From Octopus sinensis (lineage: Eukaryota): a stretch of 64,000 nucleotides of DNA. The DNA lies in NCBI RefSeq assembly GCF_006345805.1, contig NC_043005.1:64170001-64234000 (forward strand), written 5' to 3'. Under the pieces are notes generated by a model. That model was given only the letters and a program-made list of their open reading frames with translations. It searched no databases and had not been told where the DNA came from. Shown one piece after another: positions 50,380 through 57,194 of the stretch; position 1 is the stretch's first letter, and each line of letters starts with the position of its first letter. Position numbers and translations under genes: made by a program.

Positions 50380-50909
50380 ATAGATAGATAGATAGATAGA
50401 TAGATAGATAGATATAGATAGATAGATAGATAGATAGATAGATAGATAGATAGATAGATAGATTAGATAGATAGATAGATATAGATAGATAGATAGATAG
50501 ATATAGATAGATAGATAGATAGATGATAGATAGATAGATAGAAGATAGATAGATAGATAGATAGATAGATAGATAGATAGATAGATAGATGATAGATAGA
50601 TAGATAATAGATAGATAGATAGATAGATAGATAGATAGATAGATAGATAGATAGATAGATAGATAGATAGATAGATAGATAGATAGATAGATGATAGATA
50701 GATAGATAAGATAGATAGATAGATAGATAGATAGATAGATATAGATAGATAGATAGATAGATAGATATAGATAGATAGATAGATAGATAGATAGATAGAT
50801 AGATAGATAGATAGATAGATAGATAGATAGATAGATAGATAGATAGATAGATAGATAGATAGATAGATAGATAGATAGATAGATAGATAGATAGATAGAT
50901 AGATAGATA
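50380..50909. repeat. ~530-bp (GATA)n array, 3' flank of the full-length LINE
   Basis: Direct reading. Confidence 0.98.
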
Positions 50910-51207
50910 ACTTTCTTTTATTAGCCAGACAGGGCTGAATACAGAGGGGACAAATACAAATGCAGAGCTTTTCTTTTCGAGGGTGGAAAAAAAGAAAATA
51001 AATGTAAGATTGCGATCAAAAGGGATCGAGAGGAGGGAAAAAAAGAAAATAAATCGTGTATCACAGAAATAATGATAAAAACATTGATAAAACAATATTG
51101 GGTTCATCCGTGGGAAGAAAAGCCTACAGAAAAGACCACGGGAACCTCAGTCAGGGAGGAAATAACCACATGAGATCAAAATGCTCTCTTTATTTCTTTT
51201 TTACGAT

Positions 51208-54200
51208 CTACAGGATCATGCTCAAAATGGTTTCGTCACTAGCACGCACCATCTTTGCAACATTCACCCATCTTTTTTTTAATCTTTCGCGAGACAAAAC
51301 GTCCCTCTCCATTCTCACCTTCCTTTTCAAGTGGTACTTGAAAAAGTTGATGAGCGATTGGCCAGAGAGGTAAGTGTTTGTCTCTAATCCTTTCGCTCGG
51401 GTCCACCACACACATTCTTTCACCATGGCCACCAGTACGATGAAAACTGCCTTGCCTTCCCGGTTGAGGGAAGGGGGCGGAGCAATTCCCACGATAGACT
51501 CGGCCGATAGGCGGATTCGTCCCACACGTGACAGCAGCCGTTCGGCATAAGCCCACAGGTCTGAAATGGTTGGACATTGCACGAGTGCGTGCAGAACGGT
51601 TTCGTCGCTCTGACCGCATCTCGGGCAAGTCGGTCCAGTCTGTCTGGAACCGTGTCTGTAGAGCTTATCCCGAACAGGTAATGCTTCTCGATAGCACTGC
51701 CAGGCCAGGGATCTTTGGTGGTTGTTCATAGGTCCCGGCCCGAAAGTTGTCCTGAACAGGCGGGTCAGGTGTTCCTCGTCGACGCCCAGACTCTGCCCGA
51801 GTTCGTCGTCGCACCTCCCCTCCACTAATCCTCTATAGAATGCCTTTGTTGTGATGGAGTCGCACAAGTTCGATCCCGGACGGCAGAGTTGCTTGAGAGC
51901 AACGTGACACTCGCGGTGCCATTCGCCTAGCCTCGGGCTCTGCTTGATCCATGACTGTAGTTCGTCCAAGGAGACGAGCTGCGGGAAAGCGCGCCGCACA
52001 AAAAGCGACCACACCTGTTCACCGTTGTCTATGAAGCGCCGGAGATGTCGCAGTCTCAGCGCATGTCTGCGCATCATCAACCACGGCATTCCCAGCCCTC
52101 CATTTAGCGGGTGTTGACAGCAAATTGATCGCCTAACCATCGGAACGTTTCCCTTCCACAAGAAGCGGAAGAGTATACGTTCCAGTTTGGTGATGGTAGG
52201 GTCGGGATAAGGCACGACAGTCAGACGATACTCGATGACGGATGCGATGTACGCGTTCGCCACCTCCGCCCGACCTTTTAGGGATAGCTTTCTCTCAGCC
52301 CATTTCTGGGTGAGAGTAGCCACCCTAGTCGTTATCTCGCCCCAGTTCTTCTCCATTTGGAGGTCCGGACCGAACCAGACCCTGAGCAATTTAACCGGTC
52401 CGTCCGTCCAGCGTCCCACGATGGAGACGCTGTTGGACGGCATGGGCCTGCTTCTCCAGGTGCCGAGCCGCAAGCCCACTGACTTTTCCCGGTTAATTTT
52501 TGCTCCCGTTACCGCTTCGTATTCTTTTAGTGTCTCGCCGACCAGCTCGATGTGCTCGTAGCTCGACACTATGACGGTGACGTCATCCGCGTATGCAGAC
52601 ACGCTCCTCCCGCATCTCAACTCTCGTGGGATGCCCCTCAGCGTCGCCAGTTTCCGCAGTAGTGGCTCAAGAGTCAATACATACAGCAGCGATGAGAGGG
52701 AGCATCCCTGACGAACCGAACGCATGATGTTAAAAGGTATGGATAGATGACCATTTACGCGAACTACTGAGCGGATGCCGCTGTATAAGGCAGCGATCCA
52801 ACCGCGGAAAACTGGACCGAAACCAGCCGCTTTAAGGACAGCCTCCAAGTAGTGATGGTCTACCCTATCGAAGGCTTTTGATTGATCCAAATTGATCAGC
52901 GCCCCACCCATGCCAGGATTCTTAACTACCCTGTCTATTATGTAGCGCATCAGATGGAGGTTGTCATGAATACTTCTACCCGGCACGGCGCATGTTTGCG
53001 CCTTGTCGATTAGTTTCTTGATGACAAGCGCCAACCTCTCGGCTAACACCTTGGCCAAAATTTTCAAATCTGCGTTGAGCAGAGTGATGGGCCTGAAATT
53101 ATCTATGACGTCCCCCTTGTTTGGGTCTTTCTTAATCAGTGCCACTGCTCCTCGCTTTACAAAAGCAGGAATACTCCCGTTTTGCTGCCAGTTGCAGTAG
53201 ACAGCTGCCAAGACGCCTCCAAACAGTCTGGCATATGAAAATAAAGTTCGTAGGGCAGACCATCCAAGCCTGGTGACTTGTCTCTCGCGCAGCCTACCAT
53301 CGCATCCTGTACGTCCGCAGCTGTGATAGGCCTTTCACAAGACTCCACCTCTCTTGCTGAGAGTCGTGGCAAGGCATGCAGGTAGGCACTAAAGTCCACC
53401 CTGCGTTCTGACCCACCACTTGTCCCAAACAGTTGGGTGAAGTGTTGTTGAAAAGCCCACACATCCTTTTAGGCTCGAGCAATTCGCGCCCCTGTTCATC
53501 TATAAGAGACTTGATGGTGGCTCTGTTGCCTCGTTGCGTCTCCACCACTCTGGCCTCTTGGGCGGCTCCAACTCCTTCGTTCCTCAGAGCACGCATCCTA
53601 GCTCTGACAACGCATCCCTCGTGTTTGGCGTTGAGGTGTTGGTCGAGGGCCAATCTCGCCGCCAGCACGTTGGACGCGATGCCAGTTCTAAGTGCCTCTT
53701 CTAAAACCTTAACTAATTCTCCCTCTATCCTATTTCGGTCTAATGCTAGGGCTTTACTGTATCTGACTGATTCTGCTTTAATTGCTTTTTTTAGGGCATA
53801 CCACCATCTGTTGTTGATGATGGTACCCGTCAAAGCTCTCTTAACTAATGTGCTGATCCGGTCCCTGTAACCTGTCGTGCTGTAAAAGACGCGTTCATTT
53901 TCCAGTAACCAGGACCCTGCCTATGTGTCTTATCTAAGTCAAGTGTACAAGTCACAAACTTGTGATCTGTGTAACTGACTATATGAAATTGTGGACAACC
54001 TACACTACTTTTATCTATTGTCCTACAGAATACTCTATCTAAGTATGATCTGGACGACCCGATGCGGTTACTCCATGTCCACATTGGCACATTCGGGTGG
54101 TCCAGTCGGTACCTGTCAGACAGTTGGAAACGTCTGAGCAGGTCTTTGAGGCATTTGCATCCCCTTCTATTGCTATCTCTGCCCACGTAGTCTAGATGCG

Positions 54201-55216: not shown

Positions 55217-56790
55217 CTATTGTAAACTGTGTTGATTTTGTTGTTGGTGTTGGTTAGGTTGTGGTGTATGCGGTTTTGGAGGTGGGGTGTGGGTATTTTG
55301 TGTTTGAGTGATTGTAGGAATTGTTGTGTTGTTTGGGGTGTCAATTTTGTGGGGATTTGGAGTAGTAATTGTTTCTTCACTTTCGATGAGTGTCTTTTTG
55401 GCAGATGTCCTTGGTTTGGGAGTTGGTTTATTCTTGGTTGTTGTTGTTGGTGGTGTTGCTTCTGTTCTTGGTGCAGTTGATGTGGTTGTTTGGTTGGTGA
55501 GGTTTGTTTTTTGTTGATTTTCTGTGATTAGCCCTGTTCGTGCAAAACGTGGTGTGGGTAGTAAAGCTGGTTTATTTGTTTTTTCCGGCTGCTGTTGTTG
55601 TTGCTGTTGTTTTCTTGCGGCAGATTTGCAATCTTTTTTCAAGTGTTGCTCACTGCCGCATATGTAGCAACGTGGTCTTCTGCCATCGACGACCACATAC
55701 AACTTGTGGTCTTCTGATACACATATCTGGGTGGGTATTTTCTTTATGTCCTCTTGGTTTATATGTAGTAGAAATTCTACTTTTTTCCCACCCAGTTTTT
55801 GTGCTCCGTGACCGTGGTTTCTAAAATTGTGAAATCTTTCATTTTCACACATAAGGCCTTTACTAGCCATAGATTGTTAGCTATTTTTGGGACATTGTTT
55901 AAAGTGATCTTAGTCACTTTCTGTCCACGATAGCTTGGTGTTAGTTGAAGAGTTAGCGTTGAGAAACGTCTTGCTAACTCTTCAGTGTGGAATACCACTT
56001 GTATGTGTGCGAACTTGTTCCACCAGGTCACATACTCTTTGTAGTTCCAGATGGGTTTCAAGCATTTTTCTATTTTGCTTGTGTTAGCCTTCTCTGGACT
56101 TTTTGTTTTCTTATTAATTATTTTATAAATAATTGTTCTTTTTTTTTCATCTTCTAATATTTCTTGTGGTATGTTTATTTTTACTATACCATCTACTTCC
56201 ATTATTAAAATGTTCGTGTCTTTTATTTGTTGTGCAGTAAAATATACTGTTGTCTTTTTTTCTTTTATCGCCTCGGCGAAATTTGTTGTTATTTTGTTAT
56301 TGTTGTTGCTGGTGGTGATGTTGTTGTTGGCTGCAGTTGGTAAAATCGGTGTATTTGGTTTGATTGTGCAAGTAGGAAGGGATGGAAAATTACTTGCATA
56401 GTTTATCCCTGTATTCAAGCAGCTTTTGTCAATTTGTTTGGTGGTCACAGTCTTTTGTTTATTCCCTTCAGTTCTTGTTCTTTGAGGAGACAAGGTCTGA
56501 ACGGAATTGTTGTTGTTGTTATTGTTGTTTTTGTTGTTGGCAGTGGTGTCAGTGGCAGAAGAGACAGCCGTGGCAGCAGATGTCGAAATGGTGGCGCAAA
56601 TGTTATTCTTGTTGTCATTGTTATTGTTGTTGTTGTTGGTAGTTGAGGTAGTGGATGAGGTGGCGGTGGTGGTGGTGGTGGAGGCGGTGGTGGTAGAGGC
56701 GGTGGTGGTAGCAGTAGTAGTATTGTTGTTGTTGTTGTTAGTGGTGGTGTTGGTGACAGGGCTGTTACTACAAGTGGTTGCAGCGTTCAT
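55217..56790 (-). CDS. LINE ORF1 (gag-like): N/T-rich low-complexity N-terminus, single CCHC knuckle; frameshifted
   Basis: ORFs 55777..56790 and 55217..55870 overlap; CYICGSEQHLKKDC fits CX2CX4HX4C; may extend toward ~54720 in other frames. Confidence 0.85.
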
Positions 56791-57115
56791 TGCAAAGTCA
56801 TTGATGATTTCACTTTGCGTGCATAAATTCTTTTTTCTCTTAGCGTTTCCAGACTAGGAGAAAGCTGGTCGATAAAGGAATGCGACCATCGTTCTACAAT
56901 ACAATTTCTTGACATTTTCAAAATGTCGAGAAAGAAATTACAAAAATTAAATAGGGTTGAAACTGCCCCTAGGTGCGAATTCCTCCCTTGGAAAAGCACT
57001 CAAACGAAAGTTGGGTGCCTTACACACCTTATTTACAAAAATGTACACAAAATATGGGCTATAAATAGTCAAAATAAACGATTACCTTCAGAGTCGAAGT
57101 GACAGCACGTCCGTC

Positions 57116-57194
57116 GATAGATAGATAGATAGATAGATAGATAGATAGATAGATAGATAGATAGATAGATAGATAGATAGATAGATAGATAGAT
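57116..57194. repeat. (GATA)n array, 5' flank of the full-length LINE
   Basis: Direct reading. Confidence 0.98.

Follow-up and report, generated by a model that had tools for sequence, protein, structure and literature searches.

An L1-group retrotransposon of octopus with a probable oriented preference for (GATA/TATC)n microsatellites

Sequence-specific retrotransposons that carry an apurinic/apyrimidinic endonuclease (APE) are few, and their choice of microsatellites is poorly understood; the targets listed in a review are ACAY, AC, TC, TTC and TAA (PMC3812793). Among the Tx1 elements, (TC)n is the target of Kibi and (TTC)n that of Koshi, both of teleosts (PMC4494074, PMC3812793), (TTCC)n or (TTTC)n is preferred by crocodilian families, Tx1-1_Crp and Tx1-2_AMi for example (PMC4494074), and an anole Tx1 targets telomeric repeats (PMC10088271), while Togen targets (TG)n (PMC4640811). 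A family counts as target-specific when more than 20% of its flanks are of one sequence type (PMC4494074). In this study, we analysed a stretch of 64,000 nucleotides of Octopus sinensis DNA (assembly GCF_006345805.1, contig NC_043005.1, positions 64,170,001 to 64,234,000), hereafter the window, which contains an APE-type long interspersed nuclear element (LINE) with (GATA)n at both of its ends.

The full-length element, which is a retrotransposon lacking long terminal repeats (non-LTR) and has two open reading frames (ORFs), occupies positions 50910-57115 of the reverse strand (6,206 bp), as delimited by the sequence, self-BLAST and Pfam. Both of its ends directly adjoin (GATA)n without intervening letters. 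The array at its 3' flank (50379-50909, forward strand) comprises 136 units and reads (TATC)n on the sense strand of the element, and the array at its 5' flank (57116-57195, forward strand) is a (GATA)20 of perfect units. No terminal repeats, either LTR or inverted, were found within the element by self-BLAST. A second copy (25308-26396, reverse strand) is 5'-truncated and consists of the 3' end of ORF2 and the 3' untranslated region (UTR) of a second subfamily. Its 3' flank is (GATA)n with GACA and GA interruptions (25101-25307, forward strand), and at its truncation point lies (GATA)n with GGTA and GCTA interruptions (26397-26648, forward strand). The sense strand shows TATC at 4 of 4 ends, always in one orientation. 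Exactly four merged runs of at least three GATA units occur in the 64 kb, all of them at the two copies, and no TATC run is present on the forward strand of the window. The first-pass annotation of this DNA, which had described a two-ORF APE-type LINE of ~6.2 kb with (GATA)n at both ends, a diverged second copy flanked in the same way and orientation, and the adjoining of all long GATA arrays of the window to these two copies, was borne out in these respects.

The GATA arrays make up 1,070 of the 56,705 non-element bases (1.9%). For two insertions, the chance of both falling into an array and both showing TATC on their sense strand is about 9e-5, a post hoc figure with the arrays measured after insertion. 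As controls, the ends of other repeats were inspected for three GATA/TATC units within 30 bp: none was seen at the 36 BLAST-defined ends of a SINE-like (short interspersed nuclear element-like) family or at the 10 ends of another dispersed family. The window also holds many (TA)n and (TACA)n arrays, none of which carries a copy. A transfer RNA (tRNA) or small nuclear RNA (snRNA) gene as the target was ruled out, there being no Rfam match in the window.

The alignment of the two copies showed 835 identical columns out of 1014 (82%), and over 233 codons we obtained a synonymous divergence (dS) of 0.47 and a nonsynonymous divergence (dN) of 0.11 (dN/dS 0.23). These dS and dN values indicate that the copies derive from two source subfamilies, both of which were coding after their split. 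On this evidence from substitutions, two subfamilies evidently under purifying selection have the GATA target in common. The flanks of the two copies share only scattered pieces of dispersed repeats, with no collinear match extending from the junctions. Segmental duplication of a single locus was ruled out by the dN/dS of 0.23 together with these non-collinear flanks.

Parts of the element were present in 20 of 24 listed public sequencing runs, under four organism labels. Four runs, one per label and study, were compared at 85% likeness with positions 50890-57135, a stretch that takes in 20 bases from either array. The counts given here are those of the best-supported 15 of 1,303 joints, 12 of 593 insert rows, in which letters stand between the two sides, and 24 of 7,534 loose ends. 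Fourteen of the 15 joints run from 14 different positions (51279-52207) to 57116, the first GATA base, and the remaining joint skips a part within the element. Of the 14 GATA joints, 12 recur in two or more runs, and runs of three studies are represented. In all 12 insert rows the end is likewise at 57116, and 1-5 bases separate the two sides; one to three extra repeat bases at the 5' junction were seen in these 12 rows, the table excluding rows without intervening letters. After positions within 20 bp were merged, about nine separate truncation sites were counted. The GATA joints are 5'-truncated copies having (TATC)n as their upstream neighbour. Since a 5'-truncation point cannot bear a tail made by the element, the GATA found there is target DNA. 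Contig depth drops more than 10-fold from the 3' part to ORF1, which is consistent with 5' truncation and is not to be read as a copy number. In each of the four runs, the share of contigs running on unlike the compared stretch was 0, a value of uncertain rounding that agrees with a low number of non-GATA flanks. Judged from these junction sequences, an oriented (GATA/TATC)n preference throughout the family is supported, the share of copies carrying no figure. It should also be mentioned that the 5' end of the element (56951-57135) had about 10 times the contig depth of the adjacent ORF1 bin in two runs; this excess may represent joints into GATA or a conserved 5' end common to non-autonomous derivatives.

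The 3' UTR of the full-length element (50910-51207, reverse strand) contains AATAAA at 50917-50922, ending 7 nt before the junction, and in the second copy AATAAA lies 6 nt before it. On the sense strand, both copies end in a small hairpin, AATAAA, 7 or 6 bases and then immediately TATC; the hairpin ahead of AATAAA is kept in both, with a weak folding energy and no shuffle control. A poly(A) tail is absent in 2 of 2 window copies. The 3' register is fixed, as TATC starts directly behind the element in both cases. The 5' register varies, with GATA in the first copy and one to three extra repeat bases in the second.

Target-primed reverse transcription begins with an endonuclease nick in one strand of the target, whose freed 3' end primes the cDNA, and transcripts are usually cleaved 10-30 nt behind AAUAAA. 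We propose, with a probability of about 0.6, that the family resides in (GATA/TATC)n in one orientation through APE nicking of the GATA strand and priming by the reverse transcriptase (RT) at that place. That the GATA preference itself is active and oriented is highly probable. The endonuclease would nick the GATA strand, presumably between GATA units, and the RT would prime from this nick. As AAUAAA is only 6-7 nt from the end of the element, the transcript would read through into the flank and carry a few UAUC units. These units would pair with the nicked GATA strand, leaving the poly(A) uncopied, and such pairing at priming would explain its absence. The second cut would be made upstream in the same array with a looser register; with both cuts within one array, any target-site duplication would be hidden in the repeat. 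The targeting of (GATA/TATC)n had been suggested in the first-pass annotation as a property of the endonuclease. Of that claim, a family-wide oriented preference, seen in 14 of 15 listed joints, is supported; the endonuclease may be the only reader of the target, with pairing between RNA and DNA competing with it for this role.

The coding regions are in keeping with an APE-type element. ORF2 (51208-54642, reverse strand, about 1,145 codons) encodes the APE endonuclease (53872-54642; alignment with the human L1 endonuclease, L1-EN, and structure model), the RT core RVT_1 with YADD (52471-53124) and the C-terminal zinc-binding domain zf-RVT (51553-51714), the latter two delimited by Pfam. The Pfam matches were Exo_endo_phos (E 1e-13), RVT_1 (E 2e-30) and zf-RVT (E 6e-8). 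In the alignment with human L1-EN, the residues matching the catalytic N, E, Y, D, N, D and H are all in place. The single-sequence fold reached a predicted local distance difference test score (pLDDT) of 36, and a model from a 63-row alignment was used instead (pLDDT 93), whose top fold match was human L1 EN (E 6.5e-21). Longer proteins containing the endonuclease were absent from 3,176 candidates examined in a weak search.

ORF1 (55217-56790, reverse strand; first in-frame ATG at 56790, true ends uncertain) has a low-complexity N/T-rich start, a conserved middle, a CCHC knuckle at about 55622-55672 and a T/P-rich tail. It aligns with the ORF1s of relatives at E 1e-7 to 2e-11. Its zf-CCHC match scored about 20.1-20.2 bits, just below the Pfam cut-off of 20.8, and zf-CCHC was above the cut-off in 2 of 4 ORF1s of the sister lineage described below. 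ZCCHC3-type domains were not detected in the window ORF1 but are present in the fish protein P0247. No Pfam match to Transposase_22 was found in ORF1, and its middle part gave no match at 0.9 or above in the ESM Atlas. TBLASTN with full-length relatives located three frameshifts in ORF2 (near 53869, 53450-53456 and 53226) and at least one in the conserved part of ORF1 (near 55780), which means that the window copy is broken and not intact. Public-run contigs of other copies have one additional base at every frameshift place in four runs, that at 53455 in only two. Intact copies may therefore exist elsewhere, to judge from these one-base-longer contigs, none of the listed ones spanning the element.

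Relatives were taken from the best 120 of 433 matches. The closest named relative among the matches listed was Argonauta hians (64%), and Acanthosepion pharaonis (37% identical) was also among them. Two proteins filed under bacteria or metagenomes are 61-74% identical and are likely host DNA. A search with a 7-sequence alignment profile found no close relatives in metagenome, genome or viral contigs. A wider alignment yielded 136 loci, none closer than 46%, and four consecutive GATA/TATC units occurred at 0 of these 136. A single bin with a bacterial label contributed 38 loci to the broad related group at 40-45%. The loci L081-L116, L124 and L130, whose records are titled as a bacterial metagenome-assembled genome (MAG) of Arenicella, comprise several tandem-array families with ORF2 42-46% identical to that of the window. 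In all seven loci tested, whole and intact two-ORF elements follow one another head to tail with a period of 6.4-6.85 kb, the units being 98.5-99.97% identical; between the units there was no tRNA (0 of 38 loci), no Rfam RNA (0 of 7) and no microsatellite. In L112:5100-5900, truncated copies join right behind the 3' end of the preceding copy and are themselves repeated. The tandem-array records are likely animal host DNA. As far as the array sequences suggest, this sister lineage is possibly self-targeting, inserting at its own 3' end. It likewise ends shortly behind AATAAA, yet without GATA.

Two RT trees were built. The first (FastTree) had 72 rows, namely the window and the 71 segments that remained of 272 after a cut at 80% identity, and the second (IQ-TREE quick, LG+G4) had 68 rows, 36 of them kept by hand and 32 of 55 new ones left after 60% thinning. 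Neither contained a named Tx1, Kibi, Koshi or L1 reference, and the 'Transposon TX1' protein P0231 was dropped from the second by the coverage filter. In both trees, the window grouped with the protein P0001 and Argonauta at a support of 99-100, and this group was joined to the tandem-array group at 99-100, with the snRNA-linked elements on other branches. In the second tree, under midpoint rooting, the window lineage (14 rows, support 100) is nested in a set of 58 rows to which snRNA-linked elements and elements of fish also belong; a medaka protein of an unnamed family joins it at SH-aLRT 89, unstarred. GATA targeting looks confined to the octopod branch in a comparison of 136 loci that leaves aside the flanks of P0001 and of the Argonauta gene. 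The preference likely predates the split of the two subfamilies and postdates the split from the tandem-array sister lineage.

Other relatives were noted at RNA gene arrays. Keno-like elements lie at 5S-U2-U1 tandem arrays of a record titled Anaerolineae MAG (L118, L120, L122 and L127; also L121, L123, L008 and L009), where one has its poly(A) end at U2 position 38 and several stop at the very start of U1 (position 3). The L119 element is located within a U1-like gene, and a distant RT-bearing contig starts with the telomere-type repeat (AACCCT)n (L132:1-54).

The same junctions may be read in other ways. The preference could be real but set mainly at priming, so that nicking of AT-rich flexible DNA is loose and only those GATA 3' ends that pair with (UAUC)n proceed. 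The orientation bias would follow directly from this, and the missing poly(A), the short distance of 6-7 nt between AATAAA and the junction in either copy and the lack of copies in the many (TA)n and (TACA)n arrays agree with it, as do the proposal that microsatellite-like 3' RNA ends set the primer sites in RTE elements (PMC6007223) and the finding that for L1-EN the structure of DNA outweighed its sequence (PMC1950540). We nevertheless consider it rather unlikely, since a transcript ending in UAUC is itself a prediction, target choice in Tx1 has been ascribed mainly to the endonuclease (PMC4494074), and the sister lineage, which also ends soon after AATAAA but has no GATA, indicates that this 3' layout alone is insufficient to define the target. 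An element-made tail, on the other hand, cannot account for GATA at 14 different 5'-truncation points or at both 5' ends in the window. This makes it very unlikely that there is little insertion preference, with (TATC)n being a self-made 3' tail and the 5' GATA coming from array abundance, survival there or display bias, even though microsatellite tails are common at LINE 3' ends (PMC10294476) and the joint table favours flanks inside the compared stretch and puts no figure on the share of copies. Passive survival predicts both orientations, yet 0 of the 15 listed joints change strand, and 0 of the 46 control ends lie at GATA. Entry without the endonuclease, whether copies are captured where unstable arrays break or arrays recombine with one another, or junctions that are assembly artefacts, would suit arrays that are long and impure and window-copy frameshifts at homopolymer-like places, which could be sequencing errors. 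However, the 3' register is identical in two subfamilies, the junctions recur in runs of three studies, the orientation is single and the catalytic residues of the endonuclease are kept, and these explanations are the least probable of all.

Several points weigh against nicking and priming within GATA arrays as we propose them. Only listed joints were counted, and there is no denominator for the share of copies residing in GATA. A joint is visible only when its far side lies inside the compared stretch, a bias towards GATA, and the matched GATA side is merely 19-20 bases long. None of the 14 GATA joints was found in the fourth run, X8, and six of them fall within 51909-51927, near the truncation point of the second window copy, which makes their independence doubtful. 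The 24 loose ends listed resemble diverged subfamily sequence and do not allow flanks of other kinds to be counted. Evidence on the 3' junction comes from two copies, the joint analysis having skipped 50890-50922. The specificity of the endonuclease for GATA is a prediction, and the deep forks of the RT trees are poorly settled, with the named Tx1 references absent. In addition to the dominance of DNA structure already mentioned, nicking by L1-EN was looser in vitro than integration in vivo (PMC1950540).

A further and unlikely extension of the proposed nicking and priming is that the element grows its own target. The read-through (UAUC)n would pick and prime the next GATA site and each insertion would add units, making the element the main maker of long octopod GATA arrays, with an origin by target switch within a lineage of tandem-array builders that insert at their own 3' end. 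If true, the self-growing target and the tandem-array sisters would offer a natural comparison from which to learn what gives an APE endonuclease a new target.

The window contains other repeats. A Penelope-like fragment (40501-41480, reverse strand) consists of an RT piece (E 6e-6) and, behind it, a GIY-YIG match (E 2e-5), with flanks free of GATA. A dispersed repeat of ~480 bp lies at 13188-13683, 18515-18974, 32276-32655, 45110-45605 and 63876-63956, and within several of its copies (AC)n and/or (AT)n stretches occur that vary in length. The SINE-like family has 18 merged copies in the 64 kb (29135-29372 and 17 other places) and no Rfam match. A minisatellite at 1465-2664, with a period of about 134 and nine copies, is made of TG/TA microsatellite pieces, and degraded RT-like frames were recognised by eye at 36241-37193 (forward strand) with no Pfam match.

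With regard to its classification, the element has the N-terminal APE, RT and C-terminal zinc finger in ORF2 and the upstream ORF1 of L1-group APE non-LTR elements, as well as 5'-truncated copies with a common 3' end (the second copy, the joints and the depth gradient), and by this anatomy it belongs to the L1 group. Elements of the L1 clade proper have a 3' poly(A) tail and an ORF1 with a coiled coil, an RNA recognition motif (RRM) and a C-terminal domain (CTD), and in Tx1 the ORF1 has a CCHC knuckle behind RNA-binding domains, and the RT clusters with those of Tx1L, Keno, Kibi and Koshi, separately from L1. Membership of the Tx1 clade is likely, being consistent with the ORF1 type and the tree neighbours. 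The vertebrate L1 clade proper was ruled out by the absence of poly(A) in both window copies and of a Transposase_22 match. Human LINE-1, whose endonuclease is the top sequence and fold match among solved structures, differs in these two features and in the CCHC knuckle of the window ORF1; its target preference is only a weak one for TTAAAA (PMC3812793).

No LINE targeting GATA/TATC was found in the literature consulted; Repbase, Dfam and key reviews lie outside this scope, and a prior entry is possible. The available parts of PMC8967140, PMC10294476, PMC11203168, PMC8869645 and PMC5753468 do not name such a target. Bonar et al. (2026) reported 80 L1-Tx1 families (56 Mb) in Octopus vulgaris, 13 of them recently active with 421 insertions (PMC13282606); the main text does not use 'target' or 'insertion site', and one supplement contains no GATA/TATC. 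The octopus GATA family may be among those families.

Compared with the systems named at the outset, the octopus element resembles Kibi and Koshi as an APE-type LINE inserting into microsatellites and differs from them, by description and not by sequence, in its target, (TATC)n versus (TC)n or (TTC)n, and in its cephalopod instead of teleost hosts; membership of either family by target was ruled out by the (TATC)n flanks. With the crocodilian Tx1 families it shares a four-base microsatellite target, but theirs are pure pyrimidine and their hosts are vertebrates. Keno has the same two-ORF layout, CCHC knuckle and APE-RT-zinc finger order, and the RTs of the Keno-like L118 and L122 are 33-37% identical; however, Keno is specific for U2 snRNA, whereas the window has no snRNA gene, and the L118 element ends in poly(A). 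The absence of Rfam matches from the window ruled out Keno by target. Waldo, Mino, Dong and Togen, as described in the available parts of the sources, likewise reside in microsatellites in an oriented manner (ACAY, AC, TAA and TG) but belong to other clades and have other motifs, none of them GATA/TATC. This is not a new class of system, as Tx1 habitually retargets to new repeats. For octopus genomics, GATA microsatellite markers may lie at LINE junctions, where assemblies are prone to break. TATC is apparently a new motif beside the known Tx1 microsatellite targets TC, TTC and TTCC/TTTC, and the family adds it in a mollusc; its copies are young and its close relatives in the sister lineage have a different target, so that exchanging domains and loops can serve to test what determines a switch of target.

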